A stretch of DNA of 64,000 nt from positions 1 through 64,000 of the forward strand of contig JBHLRP010000006.1 of the NCBI GenBank assembly GCA_048882485.1, given 5' to 3'. Each line of letters opens with the position of its first letter. Position 1 is the stretch's first letter. The position numbers were made by a program, and so were the translations under genes. Of the stretch, positions 3,970 through 39,292 are shown piece by piece. The notes below the pieces were generated by a model. That model was not told where the DNA came from. It saw only the letters and a program-made list of their open reading frames with translations, and searched no databases. The stretch comes from Candidatus Thorarchaeota archaeon (GTDB lineage: Archaea; Asgardarchaeota; Thorarchaeia; Thorarchaeales; Thorarchaeaceae).

Positions 3970-4100
3970 AGGAGGTGGCGAGCACGCGGGAAATCGTGGT
4001 AGGAGGGGGGAGTTTCGTAATTGAGGGCATGTAACGAAAAACTAGCCCACATGCTCGCCTTGCGTATATTGTAGCGATGGACATGTCCCACACCCACCGC
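3970..4100 (-). ncRNA. candidate structured small RNA A
   Basis: TATA-like TTTAATAA at 4133-4126; hairpin GCGGUGG/CCAUCGC; 14-bp helix GGCGAGCAUGUGGG/CCCGCGUGCUCGCC whose G-U pairs form only on the minus strand; no credible ORF. Confidence 0.5.
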
Positions 4101-4311
4101 GTTCAAGGCCTAGTGCTTAGCTAACTTATTAAAGTTATGGCATGCGGATAGAGCATCTTGTTAAGTATTCTTAAAGTCCCTTCTGAAGTTGGTTTTCTGG
4201 ACCTCTGCAAAGCGCGCCTTTGCTGCATTTTCAAGGGGGCGGAGCTGAGAAATAGAAACATTCTCTAAGTTTCAGCACTGTCCAAATTTCTTTCTTAAAG
4301 TAAAAGCAGAG

Positions 4312-4340
4312 AGGGATGAGGAGCAGAGCCCCTTCATCCC
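4312..4340 (-). terminator. hairpin directly after the tes stop codon, followed by a pyrimidine/U-rich tract
   Basis: GGGAUGA...UCAUCCC stem then UCUCUGCUUUUACUUU. Confidence 0.4.
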
Positions 4341-4350
4341 AGCTGGAGTA

Positions 4351-5994
4351 CTATCCCTTGTAGGGCTTTGAGATACTATCTTCTTCAACCTGACTGGGCT
4401 TGTGTCTGCCCCTCCACTGATCCAATGGCTGAGCGAACTTGTCTTCCAGTCTTGACCTGTGGATGGTGTTCATGGTGCAGAACGGAATAATCCGGCCATC
4501 AGGTGCTGCGTAGTTGACATCGCAGTGTTGGACACGTTCCAGATCCAGATTGTAGGGGTCCTGGAAGTGCATCAGGCCAACCATGATTATTCTTCGCATG
4601 AACTTCGCCAATGACTCGTAGTCGCCTCGATTGAGGAAAGCTGAAAGAAGGTCCTTGATTATTCCCTTTCTCTTAATGTGCCTGGCACCAGCGGCAAGCT
4701 TTGCCTTTGCGCGTGCACTAGCACCAGTCTTTTGCTGTGCAAAGAGGTTGGAAATGTCCTCAAGTAGAACCAGGAACTTGGAAACATCAATCAGGTTGGT
4801 AATTGGCTCGTAATCACCATCATCGTTAATGTAGATGAATGTGGACATCCCACACGCAAAGTGAGTGCTGAGCTCAAGCTGGGGAGTTCCTTTCATGAGA
4901 CCAAGTGCTCTACCTACAGGCATCATGGCTGGAACTGGATACCATGCGTCCGCTGGTATCTTTCCACCAGTCTGTTCCTCAATCAGATGAATGACATCAG
5001 GGATGGTGATCCTCATCTCGTTACGTGCTTCATGGTCAATGCGACCTGTGATGCTCACTGGCTGAAAGTTCACACAACGAATGACATCTCTGTTCTCAAC
5101 TGCATACTCGATGATACCGCCAACTTGGTCGTCATTTACACCTCTCACGACGGTTGGTACAAGAACGAGAGACTCCATCCCAATTTCTCGAGCATTCTGA
5201 ATGGCTTGCTTCTTGACAGGCAGCAAGTTTGAACCACGTGCTTCGATGTAGGGATCAGGCGTGATGCCGTCGAACTGCATATACACAGTGGACAGTCCTG
5301 CGTCTCTAAGTTCCTGGAAATACTCCTTGCTCTTTCCAATCCTGATAGCATTGCTCGCAATCTGGACATGTCTAAAGCCCAGCTCCTTCGCCCATCTTAT
5401 GTACTGAGGCAGATGCTTGCTGACTGTGGGCTCACCGCCTGCGAACTGAAGAGCAGGTGCGGGAACTGGCTCATTGCTCCTGAGATTCTTCATCATATCG
5501 AAGACTTCCTCAGGTGTAGGCTCATAGACTGTTCCGCCTTCTGCAGCTACAGCGAAGCAGATTGGACATCTGAGATTGCATCTATTCGTGACGTCCAGAA
5601 GAGCCAGTGCAGTGTGTGATTTGTGATCGGGACATTGCCCGCAGTCCTCTGGACATCCCTTTACTGTTTCAGTTCTGGGATTGTCTAGACCCACTGACTT
5701 GTACCACCATTTCGACGCCTCTCTAAACATCTTGGCGTCGCCCCAATAAACGTCAATAAACTCGCCATGCTCATCACAGGTCTTCTTGTACATGACCTTC
5801 CCATCTTCCTCATAGAGCGTGGCATCTATTACCTTAACATCATCATTTGTCAAGAAGCACTCAGGACAGATCGATTGTGTCTTGTAGGGAAGCTGCCTCT
5901 CAGGATACTTCTCTACCTGAAACCTAGCATAACCGCCAGAATCCTCATGAGTGACGGGTTCCTCTGGAACCGGCTTGACTTCATCAGTTGCCAT
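4351..5994 (-). CDS. tes: tetraether lipid synthase (GDGT-MAS/Tes), radical SAM enzyme
   Basis: N-terminal SICPEC..KTCDEHG, GCPEDCGQCPDH, radical SAM CNLRCPIC, QFAGGEPT, MHFQDPYN..RVQHC and IIPFC. Confidence 0.9.
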   Translation of the reverse strand: MATDEVKPVPEEPVTHEDSGGYARFQVEKYPERQLPYKTQSICPECFLTNDDVKVIDATLYEEDGKVMYKKTCDEHGEFIDVYWGDAKMFREASKWWYKSVGLDNPRTETVKGCPEDCGQCPDHKSHTALALLDVTNRCNLRCPICFAVAAEGGTVYEPTPEEVFDMMKNLRSNEPVPAPALQFAGGEPTVSKHLPQYIRWAKELGFRHVQIASNAIRIGKSKEYFQELRDAGLSTVYMQFDGITPDPYIEARGSNLLPVKKQAIQNAREIGMESLVLVPTVVRGVNDDQVGGIIEYAVENRDVIRCVNFQPVSITGRIDHEARNEMRITIPDVIHLIEEQTGGKIPADAWYPVPAMMPVGRALGLMKGTPQLELSTHFACGMSTFIYINDDGDYEPITNLIDVSKFLVLLEDISNLFAQQKTGASARAKAKLAAGARHIKRKGIIKDLLSAFLNRGDYESLAKFMRRIIMVGLMHFQDPYNLDLERVQHCDVNYAAPDGRIIPFCTMNTIHRSRLEDKFAQPLDQWRGRHKPSQVEEDSISKPYKG

Positions 5995-6119
5995 AAATCA
6001 TTCCACTCCATAATCACTATACGGAACCACCACTGAACAGGGTGGTATTCTGAAGCGGGGTGCGAGGTTTTTCCAATATAACCTTTGTCCGAAACTTCCG
6101 AGTATGAAAAGGGGCATGT

Positions 6120-6431
6120 TCAATCTTGCATCTCGAGGACAAATCCTTTCTCAAACCCACCCCTTTCAAGGCGTTTCTTCAAGCGTGCCTCCTCTATTGT
6201 TGCACGGTTCATTGCTCGATGCTCTATTAGAGCGTCTAATGCTTCGAGAACATCTGCTATCTCCTCATCCTCCCCAGAGATTAGCAGTTCTTGAGCTTCC
6301 TCTGCTACTTTGCGCCTGATCAGCTTGTCAAGTTCAGTTCCAGTAGCAATCCGAATTTGTGGATCTCCACCCTTTTGCCTAATGATCTCAGGAATCCTGT
6401 CACGAACTAGCTTCTCTGGCAACATTGTCAC
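6120..6431 (-). CDS. MazG-like/PRA-PH nucleoside triphosphate pyrophosphohydrolase
   Basis: KLVRDRIPEII, EEAQE, EEIADVLE, KRLERGGF. Confidence 0.88.
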   Translation of the reverse strand: MTMLPEKLVRDRIPEIIRQKGGDPQIRIATGTELDKLIRRKVAEEAQELLISGEDEEIADVLEALDALIEHRAMNRATIEEARLKKRLERGGFEKGFVLEMQD

Positions 6432-6443
6432 CTAATACATTGT

Positions 6444-7112
6444 TCAAAGGACAAGTGCAACTTCAATTTGATGGCGAGCTACATCCAAAAATGCATCAAT
6501 TGCGTGACGCAAGTCTTCTGGAATCTCTGAGGTCCATGGCTCCTCAGCGTCTCGTGCATTGGACTCGATCATAGCAGTGAAGGCGAGATACTTTGGAGTG
6601 AGCGCTTTGTCAAAAGAAACTGTGCCTATCCACTGTCCATTGTAGATGACTTCGTATGTTGGCTGGTATTTCTTTAATGAATCAGGAACAATTGCATTCC
6701 AAAAGAAGGACGTCCCATTAAATTGTCCAGGCTTCCCAAGTGCGATGTTGTAGGTGTCCATTGTAGCCTTCGCAGATGCCAAATCGTAGAGAATCCCGAT
6801 ATGGCAGTTCAAGCATTGATTGAACTCGAGACCATCGCCGTTCGGCTTCACATATGCAATGCCATTCTTCTCAATGTTGCCATCATTGCAGTGAACACAC
6901 AAGTCCATTCCCCAACGAACTTCGAGATGATCTGCGAAGGGTCCTTGGAGGAATCTGCCTCTGGCTTCTTCAAAAGCCGTTCGAACGGCATCCTCACCTT
7001 CAGTGTCCATCTTGTTTCTAATAGCGCTCCAGACTTCAAGAAGGTCTTGCCAAAGGACATTCAGTATCATATCTGCTAGCTTATCTAATGGCCTGTCCTC
7101 AAGAGAACTCAT
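6444..7112 (-). CDS. hypothetical protein with two CxxC pairs (possible Zn ribbon)
   Basis: 222-aa ORF with SD-like GAGGA; CVHC and CLNC. Confidence 0.7.
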   Translation of the reverse strand: MSSLEDRPLDKLADMILNVLWQDLLEVWSAIRNKMDTEGEDAVRTAFEEARGRFLQGPFADHLEVRWGMDLCVHCNDGNIEKNGIAYVKPNGDGLEFNQCLNCHIGILYDLASAKATMDTYNIALGKPGQFNGTSFFWNAIVPDSLKKYQPTYEVIYNGQWIGTVSFDKALTPKYLAFTAMIESNARDAEEPWTSEIPEDLRHAIDAFLDVARHQIEVALVL

Positions 7113-7252
7113 TTCCTCAGGTCACCTTCAAGTTCTTGATTACAAAGATTCTTCCTTCGCAAGTGACAATTAAGTCTTGGTTGTTTCAAGGGCACAATAT
7201 GAAAGGTCAAGTATGCTTAGCCTAAGCTTTTTAACGGGGTCGGTTGCAGGGA

Positions 7253-7359
7253 GGAGTACTAAAGGTGGACAAGGATGGATTGCCAAATTCACTAGCACAT
7301 GTGAAACTCAACGTAGTCCATTCTTTGATTGCGAACCTGTTCGGCTTTTGGAGTGCTCT
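7253..7359 (+). promoter_or_regulatory. structured 5' leader of ileS
   Basis: TATA TTTTTAA at 7228-7234; helices GGAGUACU/AGUGCUCU and AGGAUGGAUUGC/GUAGUCCAUUCU. Confidence 0.45.
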
Positions 7360-7397
7360 AGCTGCATGGATTATCAGAACCAGAGTCGGTGATATAG

Positions 7398-10300
7398 ATG
7401 TTCAAACCAGTATCCAGCCAAGTTGATTTCGTTGCTCAGGAGAAGGAGATGCTCAAGTTTTGGGAAGCCCAGCAAATCTTTGAGAAGCTGAGGAAATTGA
7501 GGGCGAAAGGCTCGATATGGTCGTTTATTGACGGTCCTATCACCGCAAATAATCCTATGGGCGTTCATCATGGATGGGGACGGACATACAAGGACCTATA
7601 CCATCGATTCAAGGCAATGCAGGGGCATCATACACGATATCAGAATGGCTTTGATTGCCAGGGACTCTGGGTCGAGGTCAACGTTGAGCGAGATATGGGA
7701 TTCAAGGGAAAGCAAGACATAGAGGATTTTGGGCTTGAGAAGTTCATCATAATGTGCAAACAACGAGTCTTGAAATATGCTGCAGTGATGACGGAACAAA
7801 GCAAACGTCTAGGCTTTTGGATGGACTGGGATAATCTAGAGACTCTCAAGACACTCCATGATGCACTTGATGATGATCCGCTAGCAGTCATGACACTCCA
7901 AGGTGTTGATGGTCCCGTAACGGGGACAGTCGAGCAGCTAGTAGGAAGGCTTGGAATGCCTGAGCTCGGTGGTTCATACTACACGTTTTCCGAAGAAAAT
8001 AACTATACTATTTGGACTGTTTTGAAGTCATGTCATGATAGAGGATGGATATACAAGGGCAGAGATGTAATGCCTTGGTGTGCCAGGTGCGGAACAGCAA
8101 TCAGCCAACATGAGATAGTCACTGAAGGCTATCGTGAGCTGACACACCCCAGTATAACGCTGAGATTCCCCTTGGTTGATCGACCCCGTGAGAGTCTTCT
8201 GATATGGACAACGACTCCTTGGACTCTGAGCAGCAATGTGGCTGCTGCAGTGGGTCCTGAGCTGACCTATGTTAAGGTACGTCAGGGCAAGGAAGTATTC
8301 TACTTGAGTCGAGGGACCCTGCACATGCTGAAGGGCGACTACGAAGTCGAGGAGGAGCTACTTGGCTTTGACATAGAGGGATGGACATATCATGGTCCAT
8401 TTGACGAGCTTCCGGCTCAGAAGGAGAGTGGAGTTTCAGGAAAGCACAAAGTGATACTCTGGGATGAAGTGGGAGAAGAGGAAGGAACGGGTATAGTGCA
8501 CATAGCACCTGGATGCGGAGCTGAGGACTTCCAACTCTCCAAGGAGTTTGATCTTGTCGCAATAGCGCCTCTTACAGAAAATGGTATCTTCATCGAAGGG
8601 TTTGACTGGTTGTCTGGGATGAATGTCAAAGAGGTCGCCCAACCAATCTTCGACAATTTGACTGAAAAGGGATTGACCTACAAGGTTGAGGACTATACGC
8701 ATCGATACCCTGTGTGCTGGCGTTGCCAGGAAGAATTGGTCTTTCGTCTCGTTGATGAGTGGTTCATCTCGATGGGGACCAAACTTGACGTACCCTATGA
8801 AGAGGTCACGGAAGAGCAGAAAGATGAGAATCTCCGATACCAGATAATGGAGGTAGTTACTGAGGAAACCAACTGGTATCCTTCCTTTGGCAAGGAGAGG
8901 GAGTTGGATTGGCTGCGGAACATGGATGACTGGATGATCTCCAAGAAGCGATATTGGGGTCTTGCATTGCCCATATGGGAATGTACGAGTTGCAGTCATT
9001 TCGAGGTGGTAGGGAGTAGAGAAGAACTACAAGAACGAGCTGTGGTTGGATGGGATGCCTTCGAAGGTCACTCACCTCACAGACCATTCATCGATGAGAT
9101 CGAGATAGAATGTAGCGAATGCGGCGAGAGAATGAAGCGAATACCAGACGTGGGTAATCCCTGGCTGGATGCGGGAATAGTTGCAATGAGTACAATGAGG
9201 TACAACTCAGATAGGAAGTACTGGAACAAGTGGTTCCCTGCAGATCTCATCAGCGAGAGTTTTCCAGGTCAATTCAGAAACTGGTTCTACAGTCTCCTCG
9301 CAATGAGCACTATACTCGAGCGTAAAGCACCTTTCAGGAATGTCTTCACCTATGCCCTCTTGACAGCTGATGATGGAAGAGAGATGCACAAGTCATGGGG
9401 GAACATGATAGAATTCAATGAGGCTGCTGATTCAATGGGAGTGGACGTTATGCGTTGGCTATATTGTTTACATAAGCCTGAGAAGGACCTTGCCTTTGGG
9501 TATGCTCGTGGTGACGAAGTACGGAGGCATTTTCTCATACCGCTCTGGAATGTCTATTCTTTCTTTGTCACGTATGCCCTCATTGACGGTTGGATTCCCG
9601 AGAAGGACTTGAAGACAGCGCCCAGCTTGCTAGACCGGTGGATACTCTCCCGTATGAACGAGGTTACTCGAGAAGTCACTGCGTACTTGGAGTCATACGA
9701 ACCCAACATGGCGGCTGCTGTTGTCGATCGATTCATAGATCATCTGAGTAACTGGTATCTCCGACGAAGTCGTCGTCGTTTCTGGGTAGAAGCCGGATCG
9801 AGCGATGAGGAAGATGCTGACAAGAATGCGGCTTATGACACATTATATCAAGTCTTAGTCAAACTCTCTCGATTGCTAGCACCATTTGTACCGTTCGTGT
9901 CTGAAGTCATGCATCAGAATTTAGTCCGTAATGTGGATTCGGATGCGCCGGAAAGCGTTCATCATTGCGAATGGCCAGTCAGTGATTCCGTTGATGAGGC
10001 CCTAAACAGCGAGATGGCGCTGGTACTCAGATTGGTTTCATTGGGTCATGCAGCAAGAAATAAGGCAAACCGTAAGCTACGTCAACCATTGTCTGAAATC
10101 GCTTTCGCTGTTGGATTGGACAAGGAACGAGATGTCGTGACGCGCTATGCAGAGTTAATCGGCAATGAATTGAATGTTAAGAATGTTCGATTGCTGGATG
10201 TCACTGCAGAGGTAGTAAGCTACCAGCTCAAGCCTCTCCCCAAGCAACTAGGTCAAAAGTACGGCTCTCAGTTCCCTGCTCTTAGAAATGCAATACTGAG

Positions 10301-10751
10301 TCTAGATCCAAGAGAGGCTTCAACTAAGCTACAAAATGGCAAATCCGTTGAGGTCGAGGTGAATGGAGAGAAGTTCGACATACTACCTGGGGAAGTCGAA
10401 GTGATAGTTGAGGCCAAAGAGGGATTCTCGACAGCTTCCGAGGGAGGATACCTTGCTGCTCTGACAACGGAATTGACACGGGAACTAGAACTTGAAGGAT
10501 TGGCACGAGAATTCGTAAGACGGGTTCAAGATGTGCGCAAGTCTGCCGATCTGAATGTCAATGATAGGATAGAGGTCCAATATTCATCAAGCAGCCGATT
10601 AGCCAAAGCGGTTGAGTTCCATCAGCAATACATCACAGAAGAAACGCTAGCGACCAGCGTGAAACAGGTTAAGAAACCGGGTGGGGACTTCCAAGAGGAA
10701 TACAAATTCGGCCAGGAGAAGCTTGTGGTAGCGATAGCTCTCAGTGAATAG
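7398..10751 (+). CDS. ileS: isoleucine--tRNA ligase, IleRS2 type
   Basis: DGPITANNPMGVHH, GFDCQGL, WTTTPWTL, GTGIVHIAP, DWMISKKRYWG, EMHKS, NWYLRRSRRRFW and IleRS2-type C-terminal domain (EGLAREFVRRVQ). Confidence 0.96.
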   Translation: MFKPVSSQVDFVAQEKEMLKFWEAQQIFEKLRKLRAKGSIWSFIDGPITANNPMGVHHGWGRTYKDLYHRFKAMQGHHTRYQNGFDCQGLWVEVNVERDMGFKGKQDIEDFGLEKFIIMCKQRVLKYAAVMTEQSKRLGFWMDWDNLETLKTLHDALDDDPLAVMTLQGVDGPVTGTVEQLVGRLGMPELGGSYYTFSEENNYTIWTVLKSCHDRGWIYKGRDVMPWCARCGTAISQHEIVTEGYRELTHPSITLRFPLVDRPRESLLIWTTTPWTLSSNVAAAVGPELTYVKVRQGKEVFYLSRGTLHMLKGDYEVEEELLGFDIEGWTYHGPFDELPAQKESGVSGKHKVILWDEVGEEEGTGIVHIAPGCGAEDFQLSKEFDLVAIAPLTENGIFIEGFDWLSGMNVKEVAQPIFDNLTEKGLTYKVEDYTHRYPVCWRCQEELVFRLVDEWFISMGTKLDVPYEEVTEEQKDENLRYQIMEVVTEETNWYPSFGKERELDWLRNMDDWMISKKRYWGLALPIWECTSCSHFEVVGSREELQERAVVGWDAFEGHSPHRPFIDEIEIECSECGERMKRIPDVGNPWLDAGIVAMSTMRYNSDRKYWNKWFPADLISESFPGQFRNWFYSLLAMSTILERKAPFRNVFTYALLTADDGREMHKSWGNMIEFNEAADSMGVDVMRWLYCLHKPEKDLAFGYARGDEVRRHFLIPLWNVYSFFVTYALIDGWIPEKDLKTAPSLLDRWILSRMNEVTREVTAYLESYEPNMAAAVVDRFIDHLSNWYLRRSRRRFWVEAGSSDEEDADKNAAYDTLYQVLVKLSRLLAPFVPFVSEVMHQNLVRNVDSDAPESVHHCEWPVSDSVDEALNSEMALVLRLVSLGHAARNKANRKLRQPLSEIAFAVGLDKERDVVTRYAELIGNELNVKNVRLLDVTAEVVSYQLKPLPKQLGQKYGSQFPALRNAILSLDPREASTKLQNGKSVEVEVNGEKFDILPGEVEVIVEAKEGFSTASEGGYLAALTTELTRELELEGLAREFVRRVQDVRKSADLNVNDRIEVQYSSSSRLAKAVEFHQQYITEETLATSVKQVKKPGGDFQEEYKFGQEKLVVAIALSE

Positions 10752-10773
10752 TTGAGATAGGCCGAACAGAGTG

Positions 10774-12105
10774 TCATAGTCCTCCTGGCTTTCTCAAGAG
10801 CACATCGATCAGAGTATGATAGAAATTAGCGTTCTCCTCTATTGAGGAAACTGATACCCACTCATTCGGCCCATGCGTGTTACCACCACGGGGGCCAAAG
10901 TCGAATAGCTCACATCCCTCTCCAGCAAAGAAGCGAGAATCAGAGGCGCCATATCCCTCTATCACCCTGTGGGGAATCTGTTCCTTTTCAAGCGCCCAAC
11001 GTGCGGCTCGTATCAGGCGCGAGTTTGGATCAGTGTCGACATATCCGACGCCAGGGCTCACACGCAATGAGAACAGATCAACACGCCCCTCCAGTGCTCT
11101 CTGAATCGCCCTCTCCACAGCTTCTCCGTCATTTGTCATTGCACGAATATCACAATAAAGAGTCCAGAGATCACCCTCAATAGATAACAGATTGGGCGAA
11201 ATTATTCTTCCGTGGTCTGAATGTTCTGTTGGAAAGGCTGCGTTTGATAAGGGAAGAAGTGCTCTCATAAGGCCAGATAGAGCTTCGTCGTATTCTGATT
11301 CTGGTTGTGACTCATCGGGATGGAGGAGGTCAACCTCAATCCATCCAGGTACGACATTCGATTTCAGGAAAGCACCTCTAACATCCTTCACGACAGTGTA
11401 AGGGTTTACATCAAGATATTTGGAGGCAGCAAGCATCGCATGCCGGTCCACGCTTGGCCGCATGTAAGCTGAGTGCCGAGATGTTGAGCCGAAAACATCG
11501 GTCTCAAATCTAATTGTTTCTGCTCTGCCTCGCATCTTAGCTACAGATTTCTTTGCCTTGATGTAGGTAGGCAACACATTCCGTCGGCGATGAATGATTT
11601 GCTGGCCAACACTATCAGTTATGACTGCATAGTCTGGAAAAAGACCCTGCTTGATGAGATGTTCCTTGAGCTTGAAAGCGCCATTTCTTCCGCCAATCTC
11701 CTCATCACCGCTGGCAGCGATGATAACAGTGCACGGGAATGCGCTCTCTTTCAGTCTATCCGCCAAGAGAAGAAGTGACACGATATTTCCCTTGTTGTCG
11801 GATGAGCCTCGGCCATAAGCAACATCTCCATCAACACGGAGCTTGAAGGGATCAGACTCCCAACCTTCGCCCACAGGAACAACATCAAAATGGGCCAGGA
11901 AGAGTATTTTGAACTCGCCTTGGCCATACCGACCATAGACCGTGTGATAATTCTCAAACTCGATTATTTCTGGGATGAAACCAGCGTCTTCAAGTCTGTT
12001 GCCGATATATTGTGCGCAGTCGAGGTTTGCTCTTTTATCCAGTGGATCACTTATTGTCTGAAATGACACCAATGTTTCCAGTTCTTCTACAACATCCCCG
12101 TTCAT
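10774..12105 (-). CDS. M20 family metallopeptidase/deacylase (DapE/ArgE-like)
   Basis: AHFDVVP, YGRGSSDNKG, DEEIGG, GASD, HGPNE; start taken at MNGDVV. Confidence 0.88.
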   Translation of the reverse strand: MNGDVVEELETLVSFQTISDPLDKRANLDCAQYIGNRLEDAGFIPEIIEFENYHTVYGRYGQGEFKILFLAHFDVVPVGEGWESDPFKLRVDGDVAYGRGSSDNKGNIVSLLLLADRLKESAFPCTVIIAASGDEEIGGRNGAFKLKEHLIKQGLFPDYAVITDSVGQQIIHRRRNVLPTYIKAKKSVAKMRGRAETIRFETDVFGSTSRHSAYMRPSVDRHAMLAASKYLDVNPYTVVKDVRGAFLKSNVVPGWIEVDLLHPDESQPESEYDEALSGLMRALLPLSNAAFPTEHSDHGRIISPNLLSIEGDLWTLYCDIRAMTNDGEAVERAIQRALEGRVDLFSLRVSPGVGYVDTDPNSRLIRAARWALEKEQIPHRVIEGYGASDSRFFAGEGCELFDFGPRGGNTHGPNEWVSVSSIEENANFYHTLIDVLLRKPGGL

Positions 12106-12217
12106 GGTAGTTGAACAAGTCGCACAGCAGGACAAATATCCATCGAAAGCGTGTGACTATCAAAAAGAAAGGAGTTTGAGCGAAGAAGCGCTGGTCCTCG
12201 CTCACAATTGTTCTGAT

Positions 12218-14431: not shown

Positions 14432-14459
14432 TTGGATTCACCTTATTTGCGAATAGTCT

Positions 14460-14518: not shown

Positions 14519-14568
14519 GCTAGCGCGGAGAGCCTTACGGATTCTTAAAAGATTATCGTCATGGGACT

Positions 14569-15348: not shown

Positions 15349-15439
15349 GTTCGCTCACTCAGCGAATTTTCTGCGTGCAGGTTGATAAGAAGCTTGTTAT
15401 GAGATTGATAGCAATCATCGTTATCGAGAAGTAGGATAA

Positions 15440-15548
15440 TGTGGAGAAGACCCGCAGCCTGTTGATCTCCGCCGGGAGGGACGCAGACTGAAGCAACAGG
15501 AACACAAAGCGTGAACGCGGGCCTTGCGTCTCCAACTTTCTGAGACGG
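15440..15548 (-). ncRNA. candidate structured small RNA B
   Basis: TATA TTTATA (15564-15559) inside palindrome ACCTATA-AATC-TATAGGT; helices AAGGCCCGCG/UGCGGGUCUU and CCUGUUG/CAACAGG; G-U pairs favour the minus strand. Confidence 0.5.
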
Positions 15549-15704
15549 ATGTTTGACCTATAAATCTATAGGTTTTCGCTAAAATGCGCGCTGTGTTCGA
15601 AAAATCGAAAATCCTTTCTTTTAGTTTTATATAGCAAAAATCGAATTCAAATGTCCGTTTTTGACCGAATAAGAAGCCTAGTGAACGGAAATTGCGTAAA
15701 GGGG

Positions 15705-15780
15705 TGGTAGCCCCGCCAGGACTCGAACCTGGGTCCAGTGGGCCAGAACCACTGATGCTGGACCGCTACACCACGGGGCT
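15705..15780 (-). tRNA. tRNA-Gln(CUG), intronless, CCA encoded
   Basis: AGCCCCG acceptor stem (A1-U72), GTGTAGCGGT D-arm, anticodon arm CAGTGG-TT CTG GC-CCACTG, GGTTCGAGTCC T-arm, ACCA end. Confidence 0.96.
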
Positions 15781-18008: not shown

Positions 18009-18012
18009 CGAG

Positions 18013-29959: not shown

Positions 29960-30115
29960 GGAACTGCACCTGTGTTCTTGCGGAGGGTTGATTCCTGAGT
30001 AAAACTCTGAGTGTTAAATGGTTTGCCGTCTTCTACTTAGTGTGTTATAATCCGCTCCTTATCGTCCACACTTGGAGAATTGAACGGTAAATGGAGACCG
30101 GCTGCTTGCAGCAGC

Positions 30116-30167
30116 AGTCCTCCGCCTTCATCCCAATAGTGGTTTACGAAAGCTATCATGGGAACTC
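30116..30167 (-). promoter_or_regulatory. eukaryote-type (form 2) SECIS element overlapping the selD stop codon
   Basis: mRNA GAGUUCCC-AUGAU-A-GCUUUCGU-AAA-CCA-CUAU-UGG-G-AUGAAGGC-GGAG-GACU: AUGA/GA core, 8-bp helix II, unpaired AAA, apical mini-stem, helix I AGUU/GACU. Confidence 0.75.
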
Positions 30168-31199: not shown

Positions 31200-31331
31200 C
31201 GCCTCCGATATTTGTGGCCATAGGCCCAAAGTGCTTAGTGGATGGCCCAGTAATAAAATGTCTTGTAGGCTGCTTCACAATCCTTATAGCAACATCCAGA
31301 AACCTATCTTGTCAACCAGGAGTGAGAGGCA

Positions 31332-32777
31332 TTGAATATCAAAAAGCTGTCTGAGAACCTATATGAGATTCCTCAAGAAACAAAACCATGCATGACTGTG
31401 CCTGTCAAAATCTTCGCATCTGGTGCTCTAGTCCAGAAGATGAAGCAAGACAAGACTTTCGAGCAAGGCGCGAACGTAGCGTGTTTGCCAGGCATATATT
31501 CTCACAGCACAATTCTTCCAGATGGCCATCAAGGGTATGGATTTCCAATTGGCGGAGTGGCTGCCACGGATTATGATAATGGAGTGATATCACCCGGTGG
31601 AGTAGGCTATGATATCAATTGTGGAGTTCGTGTGCTAACAACAAATCTGGACGAAGGAGACGTAAGACCAAAGCTTAGGTCCCTTATAGAAACGCTCTTT
31701 CGTGATGTGCCAACTGGAGTAGGAAGAAGCGGTAAAATCCAGCTCGCGGGAATGAGCGGTGTTGATGAGGTCCTTAACAGCGGCGCAGCATGGGCGGTCG
31801 AGGAGGGGTATGGGTGGGATGAAGACCTAGACCATATTGAGGCTGGAGGAAATCTCGATATCGCGGATGCGTCAAAGGTTTCACAGCATGCAAAGAAGAG
31901 GGGGATGAGCCAGGTAGGAACACTTGGCTCAGGAAATCACTTCCTCGAGATACAACTCGTCGATGAGATTTATGATGAGCCCGCTGCAAAAGCCATGGGC
32001 ATAACCAGAAAGGGACAAGTAACAGTCATGATTCATAGCGGCTCAAGGGGACTGGGTCATCAGGTATGCAGTGATTACATCAAGACTATGACGCAGGCCA
32101 TGGTGAAATACAACATACAAGTCCCAGACAGAGAGCTCTGCAGTGCGCCTACAACATCTCCGGAGGGACAAGCGTACCTCGGTGCAATGAGTGCAGCTGC
32201 CAACTTTGCATGGGCCAATCGACAGACCATGATGCACTGGACACGTGAAGTCTTCACAAAGATCATGGGACAGTCGGCAGAGGACATGGAGATGAGGCTG
32301 ATTTATGATGTTGCTCATAACATGGGAAAGGTAGAGGAGCATGATATCGAAGGGCAGAGAAGAAAGGTTGTTGTGCATCGAAAAGGCGCAACTCGTGCAT
32401 TCCCCGCAGAGCATCCAGAAACTCCATCTGAATATAGTAGCATAGGACAGCCCGTCCTGATTCCAGGCACAATGGGAACGGCATCCTATATCCTTGTAGG
32501 GAACCCAAAGGGCATGGAGCTGACATTTGGCTCAACAGCCCATGGAGCAGGCCGTTTTATGAGTAGAAGTCGAGCCAAGAAGCAGTTCTACGGCAAGGAG
32601 ATTCAAAGCAGTCTTGCACAAGAGGGCATCATCGTGAAGGCTGCAAAGGGAATTGTGATTGCAGAAGAAGCTCCAGGCGCCTACAAAGATGTAGATGAAG
32701 TTGTAAGGGTTTCTGACTCAGTCGGAATCGCTACCAAGGCTGTGAGACTTCGTCCCATTGGCGTCATCAAGGGCTAG
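31332..32777 (+). CDS. rtcB: RNA-splicing/repair ligase RtcB
   Basis: PDGHQGYGFPIGG, GYDINCGVR, GTLGSGNHFLE, HSGSRG.GH, HRKGAT, STAHGAGR, EEAP.AYKD. Confidence 0.97.
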   Translation: MNIKKLSENLYEIPQETKPCMTVPVKIFASGALVQKMKQDKTFEQGANVACLPGIYSHSTILPDGHQGYGFPIGGVAATDYDNGVISPGGVGYDINCGVRVLTTNLDEGDVRPKLRSLIETLFRDVPTGVGRSGKIQLAGMSGVDEVLNSGAAWAVEEGYGWDEDLDHIEAGGNLDIADASKVSQHAKKRGMSQVGTLGSGNHFLEIQLVDEIYDEPAAKAMGITRKGQVTVMIHSGSRGLGHQVCSDYIKTMTQAMVKYNIQVPDRELCSAPTTSPEGQAYLGAMSAAANFAWANRQTMMHWTREVFTKIMGQSAEDMEMRLIYDVAHNMGKVEEHDIEGQRRKVVVHRKGATRAFPAEHPETPSEYSSIGQPVLIPGTMGTASYILVGNPKGMELTFGSTAHGAGRFMSRSRAKKQFYGKEIQSSLAQEGIIVKAAKGIVIAEEAPGAYKDVDEVVRVSDSVGIATKAVRLRPIGVIKG

Positions 32778-33704
32778 GCCTTTACTACGCTCTTTTGAGG
32801 CAATATCCAGTAAGACTAATGCGATTCCAATTAGAATCACACCAAAGCCAATCATAGTGAGCCCGGTTGGAATTTCGCCAAGAAAAATCACTGCGAGTAG
32901 CGTAGCACCAATCGGCTCGCCTAGTACTGCAGAGGATACCACGTAGGCGGGCACCAAAGTGAGCAGATAGTTGTTTACTGAGTGTCCTAGCGCGGTTGGA
33001 AAGATGGCAAGGGCCAGAAATATGATGACTTCACGCGGGTCAAAGACAAGAACATTCAGGCCCAGTGCCAAGCAAAACGGCAGAGTGACAACTGCTGCGG
33101 ATAGATAAACAACCGAAGTGTACACCGTGATGGGCAATCCTTCAGCATACCTCCTTCCACCTATGAAGTAAACTGCTAGAAAGAAAGCACTAAGCAACGC
33201 AAGAGCATCACCAGTAAGCGCACCAAATCCTTCGGATATGAGGTCATTCCAGGCAAGAAGAATTGCGCCTCCCACTGCCACCAGAACTCCTGCCCATGAT
33301 TTCCTTCTCAGCGATTCACCGAGAACTAGTGTGGAAAAGATAGCTGTGAAAATTGGTGAGGTGTTCACAAGGACTACACTTGCGGCAACGGTTGTCATGA
33401 ATAGAGATGTAAACCAAGTAGAGAAGTGAAAAGAAAGGACAATGCCGATGGCTGCCAACCAAAACCAAGTTGTCTTGAGTTTCGATCCCCGAAATGCTTT
33501 GAGGTCCCCTCTGACTGCTCCGACACTTGCCATGATTATTGAGCCATAGAGTGTTCTCCAAAAGACGATTACCAAGGGAGGAGAGAGAATTGGATTGGTG
33601 AATCTGATTAGTATGCTTGCGCTCGAAACCATTGAAACAGCAAGAATCAGGAGCAGAACAGTGCGTGAATTGATGCCTGACTCAATCCTTGGCTGCTCAA
33701 TCAT
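32718..33704 (-). CDS. DMT/EamA family transporter
   Basis: about 10 TM helices in two EamA repeats; T.PIF, GD.LAL, EP.GA. Confidence 0.9.
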   Translation of the reverse strand: MIEQPRIESGINSRTVLLLILAVSMVSSASILIRFTNPILSPPLVIVFWRTLYGSIIMASVGAVRGDLKAFRGSKLKTTWFWLAAIGIVLSFHFSTWFTSLFMTTVAASVVLVNTSPIFTAIFSTLVLGESLRRKSWAGVLVAVGGAILLAWNDLISEGFGALTGDALALLSAFFLAVYFIGGRRYAEGLPITVYTSVVYLSAAVVTLPFCLALGLNVLVFDPREVIIFLALAIFPTALGHSVNNYLLTLVPAYVVSSAVLGEPIGATLLAVIFLGEIPTGLTMIGFGVILIGIALVLLDIASKERSKGLALDDANGTKSHSLGSDSD

Positions 33705-33717
33705 CTCAAAATCACAC

Positions 33718-34206
33718 TCAGGTTGTCATCGAGTTGCACGAAACACAGCGAAGTTGGTCCTTGGAAGCTTCAACGACCTGAGACTCACAAATGGGACAGT
33801 CATCAACAATGAGGTTAGCATAGTCAATTCTGTCCAGCACTTGCGTCACGTCATCGATATCCAGATAATTGAAGAGCGCCTTGCCTGGTGCTCCTTCTAC
33901 CATTTTTGATAGGCGACCGGATGTGGAGTCAAAGAACAGAAGGATTGGCTTTGATAGCTCAATTGCCAACATAATCTCCATTCCAACACCATGTGAAGGA
34001 CTTGAAACTTCTGCGACAAGAAAATCGCAGGCACGCACATTGCGAACGTCGCGTTCATAGATTTCTCCTGCATTTGCAGGAGGGTAGAATTGAGGGGCAA
34101 AGACCTCAACGCCTTTCTCTTCCAGCAGGTCAATGACAACTCTGTAGAAATCATCACGCCTATCTTCAGAATGGATTATCGGACCAGATAGATATGCCAA
34201 GGTCAT
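33718..34206 (-). CDS. nucleoside 2-deoxyribosyltransferase/Rcl-like N-glycosidase with C-terminal Zn ribbon
   Basis: YLSGPI, D....RACD..VAEVS.PSHGVGMEI, KPIL; CPIC...CVSC. Confidence 0.82.
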   Translation of the reverse strand: MTLAYLSGPIIHSEDRRDDFYRVVIDLLEEKGVEVFAPQFYPPANAGEIYERDVRNVRACDFLVAEVSSPSHGVGMEIMLAIELSKPILLFFDSTSGRLSKMVEGAPGKALFNYLDIDDVTQVLDRIDYANLIVDDCPICESQVVEASKDQLRCVSCNSMTT

Positions 34207-34237
34207 CTTTGACTTCACCACAATCCACAATTGCGAC

Positions 34238-34597
34238 CTATTCGCTTATCTCATCAGTCGGCGGCCTTTTTCTTAGTTCTGAAATGGATGGAAGGGACTC
34301 ATCGTCTTCTATGATTTCAAACCGTCCAGAGTGTCCAAGTGAGAGCTGCATCTTGCCCTGCCACTCCTTAGCCCAGCCGTCGGTGATTTTGATGACCAAT
34401 CCGGCAGAAAGCGCGGCGCCTTGACCAAAGCCCCATAGACTTAGAATAGTGGTTCCTGTATGGTCAGCCACAAGGACCTCAGTGAGCTGCGTCTTGCGAC
34501 CTCCTCGTGCTCGAACAATGCGGGGAGGTGCAACTGAAACTACCCGCACAATTAGATCAGATACATTCTTTCCTATCTCGACTTCATTCAATTTCAA
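34238..34597 (-). CDS. single OB-fold ssDNA-binding protein (SSB-like)
   Basis: VRVVSV, VADHTGT..LSLWG, VIKI.DGW.KEWQGKMQL.LG. Confidence 0.85.
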   Translation of the reverse strand: MKLNEVEIGKNVSDLIVRVVSVAPPRIVRARGGRKTQLTEVLVADHTGTTILSLWGFGQGAALSAGLVIKITDGWAKEWQGKMQLSLGHSGRFEIIEDDESLPSISELRKRPPTDEISE

Positions 34598-34701
34598 ATA
34601 GTACTACCTCGCAGTGACCAGAGTGAGTGGAACGCATTACAAGATGGATATACAGTAGCAGTTGAGTCTTGCGATAGTCGTACTCAAATGAATAACAGGT
34701 G

Positions 34702-36453
34702 CTATTGGTCAGATTTGTCGGACTCATCATCTGTGGTGATGCCTAGAATGGCATCAATCTCATGAATGGCATCCAGATCCACTGAACCCATCTCATCAGA
34801 TTCATCATCATCTCGCCTTGAACGTTCAGAAACCCCCAGAAACATGGCCAATTCCCTCTTCGAGTCCTCGTCAAGGTCCTTCTCGACCTCTCCTTCTTCA
34901 CCATTGGGAGGAAGAACTTCATCGTGAGAGAAGGCTTCTAGCGCCGTATCAAGCTCTTCTTTTGACACTTTCTCAATCTCAGCACTGATTAGCTCGTCAG
35001 CCTCCAAAGCGTCAAAGATAAGGTCGATTGCCATTTGGCGCCCATTGTCCTCAGCAACAACCACTTCCTCTTTAGATGGCTCATCAGCAGCAAATTCGAT
35101 GTCCACCTGATTAGCTGCTTCCGAGATTGGTTCGCCCTCAATTTCCACGATTTCGATTTCTTCCTCGGGCAGCTCAACTGGCTCTTCAGGAATCTCTTCT
35201 TCCTCAACCACTTCAGTTGTGACGTCATCAGTTTCCTCAACTTTAAGGACTTTCAGAGTTTCCACTTCTGCAGGTTCGACTTCGACTATCCCTTCTGCCT
35301 CTGGTTCTTCCTGTTCAGCACTTTCATCTTGTAGGGCTTCAATTGGCTCGATTTCTGGAGGTTCAGCCTCCTGAGATGGTGCTTCATCAATCTCCTCAAC
35401 AACTTCTTCGATTATCTCGTAATCCTCTATATCCTCTATTACATGACCATCTTCGTCGACCAGAATCTCCTCAATTACCTCCACTTCCTCGTAGTCCTCA
35501 TCCTCTTCCTGCAAACGCGCAGCCCTTGCCTCCACTTCGGCGATGGCATCCTCAGTTGCTTCGTCTGCAAATCTAAGAAGTTGTCTCGCTGGTAGGTCAG
35601 GTAGGGCGACGCCAACATATGTTGCGGCAGCATTCATGAGAATCCGTAGCATCTCATCGCGTCTGCTCTTATCTATGGCCACCATTGGATAAGTAGGAAC
35701 TCCGAGAATTTTCTGCACAACTTCAGGTTTCATCACATTGGGCTTGTCCTGTTTGTTCGCGATTGCAAACAGAGGCACTTTGGGAGCGTCCCTTCTAATC
35801 AGTTTTAGAATATCCTTGCTAATGATAACATTACGAAGAGATGAGTCACAGACCAAGAAAATCACATCGGCACCGTGGAAGTAGAAACGCCATAGTTTTC
35901 TGAAGCGTTCCTGACCTGCGAAATCCCACAAAACCAGAGAATAGTTCCCAAAATGGATATTCTCCACTGTTTCCAGATTTAGAGCGATTGTTGGCACATA
36001 CTGGGTTGGCGGTGTATCTCCCAGAAGAAGATGTAGAGTGGTTGTTTTCCCGACACCTCCCTCACCCACCAAAGCTATCTTGAGTTTGGTAATTATCGAT
36101 GACTCAATAACAAATTCGTATTCATTTATCATAGTCTGTAACCCAGACTGAAGTATGCGACTCTTGATGGCCGTCGCTCCATCTCGCAGCTTATCAGCAA
36201 TCGCTCGTTCATCCTCTTGCGCATCTGTAACATAGACCAGCAAGAGGTCCTCGACTACCTCAATCGCCATGTACTTGTTGTCATCAATTACAAGTGGTAG
36301 CTCCGTGAAACTATCGGGAGAAGATTCCTTAATCTCACTTCTTGTCCCTAGAAACTCACGAATTTCGCCTTCTGGAACATCGATTGGCCAGTACTTTGAA
36401 CTTGCTAGAATCTGGCTTGTGGATATGCGTATCAGGTAGGTCTTGATGATCAA
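34702..36453 (-). CDS. Arf-like small GTPase with N-terminal longin-like domain and long acidic tail
   Basis: GEGGVGKTT, YVPTI, WDFAGQERFRKLWRFYF, NKQD; roughly 280-aa D/E-rich C-terminus. Confidence 0.88.
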   Translation of the reverse strand: MIIKTYLIRISTSQILASSKYWPIDVPEGEIREFLGTRSEIKESSPDSFTELPLVIDDNKYMAIEVVEDLLLVYVTDAQEDERAIADKLRDGATAIKSRILQSGLQTMINEYEFVIESSIITKLKIALVGEGGVGKTTTLHLLLGDTPPTQYVPTIALNLETVENIHFGNYSLVLWDFAGQERFRKLWRFYFHGADVIFLVCDSSLRNVIISKDILKLIRRDAPKVPLFAIANKQDKPNVMKPEVVQKILGVPTYPMVAIDKSRRDEMLRILMNAAATYVGVALPDLPARQLLRFADEATEDAIAEVEARAARLQEEDEDYEEVEVIEEILVDEDGHVIEDIEDYEIIEEVVEEIDEAPSQEAEPPEIEPIEALQDESAEQEEPEAEGIVEVEPAEVETLKVLKVEETDDVTTEVVEEEEIPEEPVELPEEEIEIVEIEGEPISEAANQVDIEFAADEPSKEEVVVAEDNGRQMAIDLIFDALEADELISAEIEKVSKEELDTALEAFSHDEVLPPNGEEGEVEKDLDEDSKRELAMFLGVSERSRRDDDESDEMGSVDLDAIHEIDAILGITTDDESDKSDQ

Positions 36454-36607
36454 CTAGGTTTCACCATCTAATTGGCAAATCATGATATATTTCCGGTACT
36501 AAGTCTAGGTTTGAATGCTATTTTAAAGCATTCACGGTCAACCCTTCGTATTGGGCAATGCATTGACTTATACACGATTCTAAGGTGGCATAAGCAAATA
36601 GATTATG

Positions 36608-36842
36608 TTAGGACGCAGAGGCTCGCCAGGCGATCCTCCGCATCCGTCGGGCCTTCAGGCCGAACGCACGCGAAAATTCTCTTTGCGCAAGTATTGTTTG
36701 CAAGGGGATTCATCCTCTTGAAGCGTATGCTCCAAGAGTCCAATGCTAGAACTCGTAAGGGACCGTGTGTTGTGAATGCGAGTTCTTTTGACGGGGAAGT
36801 CGTGCGTTCCGCGACAAAGGCAGCCTACACCATAGAGTGCAG
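36608..36842 (-). ncRNA. candidate multibranch structured RNA C (about 235 nt)
   Basis: promoter-like AAAGCTTCTTAT at 36880-36869; helices GAACGCACG/CGUGCGUUC, AGAACUCG/CGAGUUCU, CUCUUGGAGC/GCUUCAAGAG, GGCC-UGAA-GGCC, GGAUGCGGAGG/CCUCUGCGUCC. Confidence 0.6.
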
Positions 36843-37001
36843 ACCAATCGACACTTTGATGATGCAACATAAGAAGCTTTCTGGTTTCCGAAATAACGAA
36901 AAGACGGTTCATAGACGGTTAGTGGCCCCAAAAAAGGGCTCCTTTGGTAGAACAGCATATACTGTCGGCTATAAGGCACGAAACGGATTAGGAGCCTCCA
37001 T

Positions 37002-38141
37002 CTATCGCGGAAAGTTATCCCTCAGAAGTCGAAGGTGGTGATGAACCATCTCCATCGCCTTTGTATCATCAGGAGTTTTCTCCAGCTCAGTGACCAATGT
37101 CTGGAGGAAGTATTCAGGGAAGAAGAGCCTCACACGAATATCATTGAGAAGGAACAGCCATTTGTCATATTCACCAGATGCTCCCTTTCGTCTTCGTTCT
37201 GAAACCACTCTATACTTCTTCAATGTCTGAATAGCCTGCTTTAGTTCCTTCGGAGGAATGCCCAGGGTGGCTTCGAGCTCCGAGATGTTTACGGGTCTAC
37301 GTCTGAGCTCATTTAGAGTGTCATAGCAGTCTGGATCTGCAAGAATAGATGCCACTGATACTGTATCCTCCGGTGTCTTCTGCCATTCTGTGAGGAACTC
37401 AAGCACCTCTGACTTGTATTCTGCAGTGAGCTCAGGATCAAGCACAGATCCTGCAGATTCCATTGCCAGCAATGGAGGAGCACGAAACACCTCAAGGTCT
37501 TTTATCATGAATACACAGGTTCTGCCGATTTCATCGACCCATTCACTCTTTACAAGACCTAACTCTTCGAATGGAGCGATGATTGAATCGACTGACACAC
37601 TAGGTAGACCAGTAACCATCTTGAGCCATTCCTCAAGATCCTCTTTGGAGATGCCTCCCTTCCATAGTTTTGGAAATACTGCTCGTGAAATCTCATCTGA
37701 AAAGAGACGGGCTAGTCTGGATTCATCAGTCATGCCAGCGAGTCTAATAATTCGTCTGTATGTGTTGTCGAGCTCTGTCTTGAGCTCTGCATCTGTCATC
37801 GCCACGACTGCATTCGTCAGCGGTGATACGATGGAGGTGATTGCAGCCTCATAGATCTTGGGATCTTCAGAGGGCGTAAGAAGCAAACTGATGCAGTATT
37901 GCTCCTCTTCTCTCACAATCCCAGTGTAATAGGAGGCGACATTGTACTCTTCTCCTCCAATGCGAACACTGAGGGATGAGAAACCAGCTGTGGCGTCACC
38001 CATAGCGTGCGAGGTAAAAATCCTCATGATCTCGGTGTTCAAGTCTTCTCGGTAATAGTCCGCGAAGTCGGCTGGAACCTTGGCTTTCAGCACTGCGCCG
38101 ATTTTGCTGTCCCAGTCGATCAAGAGCATGGCAACGGGCAT
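37002..38141 (-). CDS. protein with N-terminal longin/uDENN-like domain and two winged-helix regions
   Basis: N-terminal LIDWDSKIGAVLKAKVP pattern; ISKEDLEE..FEELGLVK and NISELEATLG...LKKYRVV wHTH-like segments. Confidence 0.65.
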   Translation of the reverse strand: MPVAMLLIDWDSKIGAVLKAKVPADFADYYREDLNTEIMRIFTSHAMGDATAGFSSLSVRIGGEEYNVASYYTGIVREEEQYCISLLLTPSEDPKIYEAAITSIVSPLTNAVVAMTDAELKTELDNTYRRIIRLAGMTDESRLARLFSDEISRAVFPKLWKGGISKEDLEEWLKMVTGLPSVSVDSIIAPFEELGLVKSEWVDEIGRTCVFMIKDLEVFRAPPLLAMESAGSVLDPELTAEYKSEVLEFLTEWQKTPEDTVSVASILADPDCYDTLNELRRRPVNISELEATLGIPPKELKQAIQTLKKYRVVSERRRKGASGEYDKWLFLLNDIRVRLFFPEYFLQTLVTELEKTPDDTKAMEMVHHHLRLLRDNFPR

Positions 38142-38276
38142 TTTTCTATCTCCGGTCCCTGTATAGACTGGTCAATTGGAGCTAGTCTGAGACGTTCAGC
38201 GGTGAGTACCTAAAAAAGCTTGTCACTAGACGCTCCGCATAACGCTCTGGGGCTCCCTTTTGGAGCCATTTGGAAC

Positions 38277-38939
38277 TCAAGTTTTGCCATTTTTCTGCTC
38301 TCGAATGTACTCGGTGATATGATAATGTACCTCGGCGGTCACAAGCTCTATTGATCTTCTTGCGTCTATGAAAATGAAATTGCCCATGTCCTCCTCAATC
38401 ATCTCAAGGTATGCCTTTCGAACCCTGACCAAGCGGTCATATTGCTCAAACTGCACATTGAGCCGGCCCTTTCTTTCACTGACTCTTTTCAGACCGATTT
38501 CAATTGGGACATCAAGTATGAACACGATGTCCGGTTCTGGAGCCGATATCTCCTCTCGATTCCGCTTCAAGATGTCCTTCCAATATAATCCAGTGCTTGC
38601 GGACTGATAGGCTCCTGTTGCAAAGAAATACCTGTCCATGAGGATAATTTTCCCTGAGTCTAGAGCCGGTAGAATACGATTTTGGACATGCCACTCTCTA
38701 TCCCGAATAAACAACTCTAGCTCTTCTTCTGGGGTTAGTTCACCCTTGATAGAACGAGCACGAATCTCTTGACCCCAATCGCTCTCATCTGTTGGCTCTC
38801 TTAGCCTCTTGACATCATAGCCTTCGTCAATCATTACATCAACTAATCGGTCACATACAGCTGTTTTTCCAGCACCATCTATACCCTCCAGGACAAAGAG
38901 CATTCCTTTCACAGCTGAGATTTCTCCTACGTCATGCAT
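38277..38939 (-). CDS. tmk: thymidylate kinase
   Basis: LEGIDGAGKT, REPT, LF..DR..H, MDRY..AT.AYQ, PD..F.LDV. Confidence 0.95.
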   Translation of the reverse strand: MHDVGEISAVKGMLFVLEGIDGAGKTAVCDRLVDVMIDEGYDVKRLREPTDESDWGQEIRARSIKGELTPEEELELFIRDREWHVQNRILPALDSGKIILMDRYFFATGAYQSASTGLYWKDILKRNREEISAPEPDIVFILDVPIEIGLKRVSERKGRLNVQFEQYDRLVRVRKAYLEMIEEDMGNFIFIDARRSIELVTAEVHYHITEYIREQKNGKT

Positions 38940-39069
38940 TAGAGTTCCGGACTCATTACAGTATTAGATGCTTCGGTCATGTAATGTATCCAGACAACAC
39001 CTTCTACTCACCTGTGAGTAGCTTCCTATCGCCATACAATGTTTATTAGGAACATGAATCAGTATTCAC

Positions 39070-39292
39070 GTGAGGACCAAAGGGGATCTCAAGGTATTCT
39101 CTCGACGTGGACACTCGAGGTGAGAAATCGGTAGGGCATCCCCCTCCCATGTAACAAACTGCGATAGCGACTTGCGTCCAACCGCGTTCGTTCGTTCTTT
39201 GGGTCCCCTTTATAGGGGGGCCAAGGTCCCCTTGCAGAGTTCTCATGCCCCCGATTCGCTATTCCGAGTGTCCTCGACCCCGTTCGGATCTA
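39070..39292 (+). ncRNA. candidate multibranch structured RNA D (about 220 nt)
   Basis: promoter-like CAATGTTTATTA at 39037-39048; nested helices GGACACUCG/CGAGUGUCC, AAUCGG/CCGAUU, GGGCAU/AUGCCC, CUGCGA/UUGCAG, CCCC/GGGG. Confidence 0.6.

Follow-up and report, generated by a model that had tools for sequence, protein, structure and literature searches.

The question raised by this locus is whether four intergenic gaps of an archaeal contig contain RNA genes, whether these belong to one family, and what their C-rich loops could be for. The window analysed here (positions 1 to 64,000 of contig JBHLRP010000006.1, forward strand, assembly GCA_048882485.1; 64,000 nt) comes from a Candidatus Thorarchaeota archaeon known from a 3.96-Mb metagenome-assembled genome (MAG; 90.5% complete), of which it is contig C6. 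In a comparison of EF-2, public MAGs of Candidatus Thorarchaeota came out nearest. A first-pass annotation had proposed that the four gaps, here termed A to D, hold a possible family of stand-alone structured small RNAs with C-rich loops resembling the anti-Shine–Dalgarno (anti-SD) sequence. There is little doubt that A–D are real, independently promoted and structured RNA genes, because the spacing from their TATA boxes is conserved, helices covary in all four, folding z-scores are low, cores are better conserved than flanks, and A and B are strict in their distribution.

All four gaps were conserved within the genus in BLASTN comparisons with 40 relatives, and in other genera the cores were 85–100% identical while the flanks were ~75–80% identical. 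The homologue alignments share a recurring order of a TATA-type box, ~24 nt, the RNA start, covarying helices and invariant single strands, followed in the 3′ part by a pyrimidine-rich trailer and then by the second conserved promoter box of the downstream gene. Most of what the first-pass annotation had said about gene anatomy is borne out. The TATA-like box noted for each gap is conserved in relatives ~24 nt 5′ of the conserved RNA, the spacing expected of a promoter, and the separate promoter-like motif of the next gene is found at 3925–3935, 15384–15395, 36517–36529 and 39305–39317. Conserved G-U pairs and covariation show that the strands assigned to A, B, C and D were right, every quoted motif was found at its position, and relatives display covarying helices in all four RNAs. 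Folding against shuffled sequences, which had been suggested as a check, gave z-scores of −2.9 (A), −1.8 (B), −4.8 (C) and −1.5 (D) for the gaps as first delimited. With boundaries set by conservation, B reached −3.1 and the rod domain of D (39105–39277) −4.4, the best values thus ranging from −2.9 to −4.8.

At gathering thresholds, Rfam 15 recognized only a tRNA-Gln gene in the window (15705–15780), which encodes its full CCA. When each gap was scanned at E ≤ 10, nothing credible emerged: the best match, CRISPR-DR10, scored 24 bits against a threshold of 39 and lay on the wrong strand, C/D-box matches were far below threshold and at chance level, and no riboswitch family appeared. Two other copies of A in the genome had no Rfam match either. 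RNase P RNA is found on contig C110 (163 bits) and signal recognition particle (SRP) RNA on C58 (90 bits), and the 23S rRNA also lies outside C6; together with the lack of Rfam matches, this argues that A–D are not known housekeeping RNAs and agrees with the earlier statement that no tRNA, SRP RNA, RNase P or C/D-box signature was visible. Assignment of A as a tRNA, a transfer-messenger RNA-like molecule or an H/ACA RNA, and of C as an H/ACA RNA, was rejected, since D and T arms are missing, there is no conserved ACA, and neither ARAGORN nor Rfam gave a match; D gave no match as a cobalamin riboswitch. Inspection of the RNAs by eye revealed no K-turn, C/D, H/ACA or Sm-site signature, and a literature search on Thorarchaeota and small RNAs (sRNAs) turned up no description of regulatory sRNAs from this group. 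As judged from these searches and from the genome comparisons below, A–D are uncatalogued, stand-alone RNA genes specific to a lineage of Asgard archaea, the Thorarchaeota.

RNA A (minus strand, ~4102–3974) comprises a variable 5′ leader hairpin (4074–4100), recognized by folding of the copies, and a closed 86-nt domain (3974–4059) delimited by covariation, invariance and covariance model R1. Its TATA-like box CTTTAATAAG (4125–4134, minus strand) lies 24 nt 5′ of the leader hairpin. The domain is closed by a 14-bp stem (4046–4059 with 3977–3990) and encloses an inner stem UUUCGU/ACGAAA, the loop ACAUGCCCUCAAU (4020–4032) and an unpaired C-rich stretch CUCCCCCCUCCUACCAC (3996–4012). Changes on both sides are seen in 10 of the 14 closing pairs; 88.5% of alignment cells are paired, versus 36–58% in slid controls, and none of 500 shuffles reached the observed score. 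About 50 nt of the core, including ACAUGCCCUCAAU and CUCCCCCCUCCUACCAC, are essentially invariant across genera, and within the genus the core is 99% identical, with flanks at ~80%. The C-rich tract is unpaired in the minimum free energy (MFE) fold of 13 of 14 copies. The leader hairpin, of which the sequence is not conserved beyond close relatives, folds independently in 13 of 14 copies tested, and one subfamily lacks it altogether, its TATA box lying directly 5′ of the closing stem. Many leaders carry G(G)UAGGAG, the complement of CUCCUACC; pairing between leader and core was nevertheless dismissed, as the tract stays free in nearly all of these MFE folds and the second subfamily has no leader.

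Model R1 scored 123 bits at the window copy and found three copies in this genome, on C6, on C16 and, as a longer variant, on C43. It detected A in 26/26 genomes of the family and in the single genome of the sister family (1/1), that is, in all 27 sampled genomes of the order Thorarchaeales, with 1–9 copies per genome, and in none of 123 other Asgard genomes. Paralogues elsewhere are each preceded by a box of the YTTAWTAGG type. Several contigs begin or end inside a copy (G007, G009, G130, G155, G158 and G165); near-identical copies apparently break MAG assemblies, and the copy numbers are therefore lower bounds. The third copy of this genome (G000:C43, ~11920–12060; L115 / L051:420–560) is enlarged to ~130 nt and convergent with its neighbour; the inner ACGAAA strand is missing from it, while an additional hairpin, GGCUUUCUCUUCGGAGAAGGCC, and a T7 run at the end are present. 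In another copy (L041:98–235; G023:C1, ~130627–130764), a 31-nt insert predicted to form its own hairpin splits the C-rich tract into ACUCCC and CCUCCUACC. In most copies, an unpaired ACC (3974–3976 in the window) follows the 12–14-bp terminal helix, with variable bases after it, a layout that resembles the 3′-end of a tRNA minihelix.

RNA B (15440–15533, minus strand) is a ~94-nt three-way fold described by model R2. Its TATA box GATTTATAGG (15557–15566, minus strand) is nearly invariant in the family between variable flanks and ends 23 nt 5′ of a conserved GGAGAC. An apical hairpin CGUC/GGCG (15470–15483) carries the invariant loop CCUCCC, and two pairs of helix P2 covary from CG to UA. Exactly one copy was found by R2 in each of 26/26 family genomes, and none in 124 other Asgard genomes. 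The 5′ half of the first hairpin originally drawn for B (15548–15534) did not hold up: it falls in the stretch from the TATA box to the start of conservation, varies among relatives and is probably outside RNA B. A pseudoknot of GACGCA with the loop UGCGUC was also discarded, the sole informative variant altering both segments at non-compensating positions. Between the tRNA-Gln gene and the B promoter (~15595–15650, minus strand), two direct repeats TTCGATTTTT surround a second TATA-like sequence CTATATAAAAC, an arrangement conserved in the genus.

RNA C (36608–36844, minus strand) is predicted to be a ~237-nt multibranched molecule with a variable 5′ hairpin, a long-range helix (36801–36809 with 36662–36670) and a terminal 11-bp hairpin (36611–36645). 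Covariation was found in 11 of 42 predicted pairs, those of the long-range helix included. Its C-rich boxes are GACUUCCCCGUC, CGGUCCCUUA and AAUCCCCUUGCA, and the boxes UUCCCC, GGUCCCU and AAUCCCCUUGCA sit in loops. The promoter motif of C, AAGCTTCTTATG (36868–36879, minus strand), is conserved in all genus members, and it recurs 5′ of the methyltransferase gene next to B (15384–15395). RNA C is single-copy and was detected in fewer genera than A and B.

RNA D (39072–39284, plus strand) is a ~210-nt rod with a branched head, preceded by the TATA box AATGTTTATTAGG (39038–39050, plus strand), which is conserved across the genus. The rod pairs 39109–39139 with 39245–39273 and contains an invariant internal loop CCCCCUCCCAUGUAACAAA (39140–39158), while the head contains an invariant junction strand GGUCCCCUUGCAGAGUUCUC (39225–39244). 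Of its 52 pairs, 13 covary, and ~100 nt are invariant. Model R3 scored 150 bits at this locus and found D, a single-copy gene, in four genera only, with a weaker match in a fifth genus obtained by BLASTN. One kind of box, CAATGTTTATTA (promoter 12-mers at 39037 and 39304), precedes both D and the downstream DUF4430 gene. Between the second promoter box and that gene is a perfect 22-bp palindrome, TAGGATAGGTTAACCTATCCTA (39327–39348), which is 96–100% conserved across several genera and is likely an operator for a dimeric transcription factor. Pairing between A and D was considered as well, as GUUACAUG and CCUACC of A complement CAUGUAAC and GGUAGG of D. It was dropped: the GGUAGG of D varies (GGCAGG, GGUUGG) without compensation in A, the second A subfamily reads GUAACAUG, and D occurs in far fewer genera.

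By profile comparison, A–D are not homologous to each other and make up a class by motif, not one family. Twelve nhmmer profile-versus-sequence comparisons among them were empty or gave E = 1.8, and R1, run on the window with filters off, detected A only, its next matches lying elsewhere with E-values of at least 0.24. Their ranges set them apart as well: the multicopy A extends over the order, the single-copy B over the family, and C and D over fewer taxa. Of the originally proposed family, the separate structured genes remain, and the single family is lost, since the profiles do not cross-detect. A similar division applies to the shared motifs. UCCCCUUGCA is conserved in C and D, while UGCGUCC, previously noted in B, C and D, is not a conserved motif in C because it lies inside the covarying terminal stem; its sharing is probably due to chance. 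Words common to A–D are in modest excess (25 shared 7-mers versus 11 expected from shuffles, p ~0.002), with one 7-mer present in three of the RNAs (p ~0.08). Despite having no overall homology, C and D share GGUCCC(C)UU.C.GAGUUCU, and the combination of UCCCCUUGCA and GAGUUCU, conserved in both alignments, may represent a common binding site.

What unites the four RNAs is the composition of their exposed strands. The conserved unpaired columns of A–D comprise 58 C, 34 A, 33 U and 17 G, in line with the initial impression of C-rich unpaired parts. Each RNA exposes a conserved C-rich motif held by variable or covarying stems, and by this feature A–D fit the class of anti-SD sRNAs with C-rich loops. 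The tracts of all four resemble the anti-SD sequence; its core, CCUCC, is exposed in A, B and D, and C has GGUCCCU and UCCCCUU boxes. On the mRNA side, GGAGG at −16 to −8 of the starts of this genome numbers 187 versus 27 occurrences, and GGAGG(UGA) peaks there. No fewer than 28% of starts carry GGAG or GAGG, versus 9% in a control window, and GGAGG, GGAGGG, GGGAGG and GUAGGAG are 5- to 9-fold enriched at −20 to −10 of start codons. By these counts, this genome uses SD-led initiation, which a C-rich motif could mask. The 3′-end of the 16S rRNA was taken from a family member, the genome of the window having no assembled small subunit rRNA, and ends in GGAUCACCUCCUAC (...GAUCACCUCCU). By this sequence, CCUCCUAC of A is an 8-nt copy of the rRNA end, and the sequence exposed in A, B and D is the anti-SD core. 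In the 16S gene of a genus relative (L205:3020–3140, G012:C2), a ~26-nt insertion follows AAGUCGUAAC, and after GCGGAUGGA this gene reads AGAAGUAG in place of UCACCUCC; an intron, an expansion or an assembly artefact is possible.

A–D could therefore act in trans, by pairing with the purine-rich ribosome-binding regions of mRNAs. This reading, the most likely one though held tentatively, is favoured because the genome uses SD sites, because three of the RNAs (A, B and D) carry an exposed anti-SD core, and because precedents exist. In each RNA, covarying helices would hold open an invariant pyrimidine-rich tract: CUCCCCCCUCCUACC in A, the loop CCUCCC in B, the GGUCCCU and UCCCCUU boxes in C, and CCCCCUCCC in D, which lies in the internal loop of the covarying rod. 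The exposed tracts would pair in trans with GGAGG, GGGAGG and AGGGACC-GGAG regions of mRNAs and compete with the identical CCUCC at the 16S rRNA 3′-end, whereby translation initiation or mRNA stability would be tuned. With its 1–9 siblings per genome, A would be a multicopy regulator of the anti-SD type. A candidate target of the GGUCCCU box of C is AGGGACCGGAGA (38149–38160, minus strand), at −20 to −9 of a neighbouring 379-aa gene (37002–38141). CGGUCCCU of C is an 8-nt perfect complement of AGGGACCG, a site that is conserved in genus relatives and abuts the GGAGA Shine–Dalgarno sequence of that gene. A wider GGGACC regulon was rejected, the motif being enriched neither near the start codons of the genome nor in the window.

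Several observations weigh against this trans-acting role. When the loops of A, B and D were compared with 2,443 start regions by RNAduplex, a fraction of ~0.20 of start windows reached −10 kcal/mol or lower, versus 0.12 of coding-sequence windows; shuffled loops of the same composition gave 0.14–0.19, and the boxes of C showed no preference for start regions. Modelling of interactions with translation starts, a check suggested at the outset, thus gave no clear separation of real loops from shuffled ones. A whole-genome search for complementary targets of at least 14 nt to any conserved segment found none beyond chance E-values, and no exact 11-mer complement of the A tract occurs in the genome. 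Among sequencing runs searched for the locus, no RNA run was listed; three runs of unrecorded type, all from one study, contained 0.22–0.37 of the sampled words. The candidate target of C is a single 8-mer with a chance expectation of ~0.1, which is weak evidence, and the loop of a distant D homologue reads CGCCCCAUG, without CCUCC. Finally, the ~50 invariant nt of A and ~100 of D exceed the need of a pairing seed, which points to a protein partner or tertiary structure.

This last point leads to the strongest alternative, doubtful though it is as a whole: A–D would be parts of ribonucleoproteins (RNPs), or decoys of a protein with affinity for single strands of the C-rich or GGUCCC type, and their tracts would be protein sites. 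It is given weight because the extent of invariance, which spans the order in A and in both A and D is far longer than a seed, is accounted for at least equally well by a partner such as a protein or the ribosome. GGUCCC/UCCCC boxes occur two to three times in C, D and their distant homologues, the long motif shared by C and D without overall homology would suit a common protein, and the duplex modelling did not single out the real loops. In a side form of this explanation, tRNA enzymes might act on A as on a minihelix, as suggested by the conserved ACC after its terminal helix; this tail is, however, absent from the sister-family copy and from some paralogues. Gene neighbourhoods offer no candidate protein, the neighbours of A copies being unrelated, and the lack of any recognizable RNP signature by eye, with Rfam C/D-box matches far below threshold, also speaks against it.

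An improbable alternative is that A–D are cis-acting leaders or riboswitch-like sensors, of a phzF-like gene (A), a methyltransferase gene (B), an Arf/Roc GTPase gene (C) and a DUF4430/energy-coupling factor (ECF) uptake locus (D). A same-strand gene does lie downstream of each RNA, the positions of A, B and D are kept across genera, and D is 5′ of a DUF4430 gene, a family often under the control of cobalamin riboswitches in bacteria. Arf/Roc-type GTPase genes adjoin two of the four gaps. Against a leader role stands the separate conserved promoter box between each RNA and the next gene, as well as the absence of riboswitch family matches even at E ≤ 10. Moreover, the operator of the DUF4430-type gene is more than 2 kb from D in two relatives, which argues against D as a leader, and paralogues of A, which have unrelated neighbours and in some cases converge on the next gene, are not leaders.

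It is far less credible that A is a miniature inverted-repeat transposable element (MITE) or other DNA repeat, with a terminal inverted repeat that mimics an RNA stem. The number of copies per genome, the location of several at contig ends and the tandem pairs found in some genomes would suit such an element, but the pattern is the reverse of that expected: the ends vary with compensation around an invariant interior, and the G-U pairs work on one strand only, which excludes a MITE for A. A TATA box at a fixed distance in every copy, the synteny of the main copy across genera, and the lack of a transposase, TnpB or integrase recurring beside the copies point the same way. Just as remote is the idea of small proteins encoded in the gaps, or of conservation that serves DNA-level control alone. 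In its favour, there is an ATG in the invariant loop of A, a conserved palindromic operator adjoins D, and two open reading frames (ORFs) overlap C (189 aa, 36472–37041, plus strand; 85 aa, 36655–36912, minus strand). The frame in A, however, is only three codons long in the second subfamily, and there is no conservation of its stop codon. Pfam recognized nothing in the ORFs over C, which are ruled out as coding by 1- and 2-nt indels within conserved parts of the alignment, and compensatory changes keep the helices. Annotation pipelines could mistake these two ORFs for genes, but they are almost certainly spurious.

The window therefore contains four RNA genes of well-defined extent, each with a promoter, a covarying fold and a clear phylogenetic range; one of them, the multicopy A, is present in every sampled genome of the Thorarchaeales. 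If A–D mask ribosome-binding sites, Asgard archaea would have evolved post-transcriptional control of the bacterial cuckoo/RsaE type on their own; as RNP components, A–D would be a pointer to unknown machinery. A more speculative and rather unlikely extension is that Thorarchaeota run a set of RNAs (A with CCUCCUAC, B and D) that copy the 16S rRNA 3′-end for genome-wide control of SD initiation, which would amount to a control layer in the archaeal lineage nearest to eukaryotes, or else that A is the RNA of an RNP, a minihelix ending in ACC on which RNase P and the CCA-adding enzyme would act and whose invariant 50-nt core would dock on small-subunit maturation factors or the ribosome itself. 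Either way, the covariance models can be added to RNA catalogues, the genes are targets for metatranscriptomics, and the annotation of Asgard MAGs can be improved.

The closest analogues of A–D, if the trans-acting reading holds, would be found among the cuckoo (CcsR) RNAs, the RsaE/LhrC group and sRNA154/sRNA41 of Methanosarcina. Like A–D, the two Methanosarcina mazei RNAs are archaeal and intergenic; sequences in their loops cover ribosome-binding sites and so keep translation from starting (reviewed in PMC5867862). They differ in belonging to Euryarchaeota, in being single-copy with defined, experimentally validated targets, and in sharing neither sequence nor structure with A–D. In the Firmicutes, UCCC-motif Rsa RNAs bind SD sequences (PMC2790875), and LhrC is a multicopy sRNA of the same kind (PMC4132741). 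As in A–D, these RNAs (RsaA/C/E/G/H, the hairpins of RNAIII and LhrC1–5) are mutually unrelated, and their class is set by an unpaired C-rich motif; a 5′ stabilizing hairpin followed by a functional domain is another common trait, as is the multicopy state of LhrC. They are, however, bacterial, end in intrinsic terminators and have a short motif (UCCC) with the rest less conserved, and their function was established by toeprinting, whereas that of A–D is a proposal. Cuckoo RNAs (CcsR1–4/RSs0680, alpha-r14) of Alphaproteobacteria carry CCUCCUCCC in their loops (PMC4615179). They have no sequence or profile similarity to A–D and no Rfam match links the two, and they consist of 2–4 adjacent simple hairpins, each with the same loop, in contrast to the one closed domain, ~50-nt invariant core and 3′ ACC of A. 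Even so, their multicopy siblings, variable stems and invariant C/U-rich, anti-SD-like loop motif provide the best fit for A, and also fit B and D.

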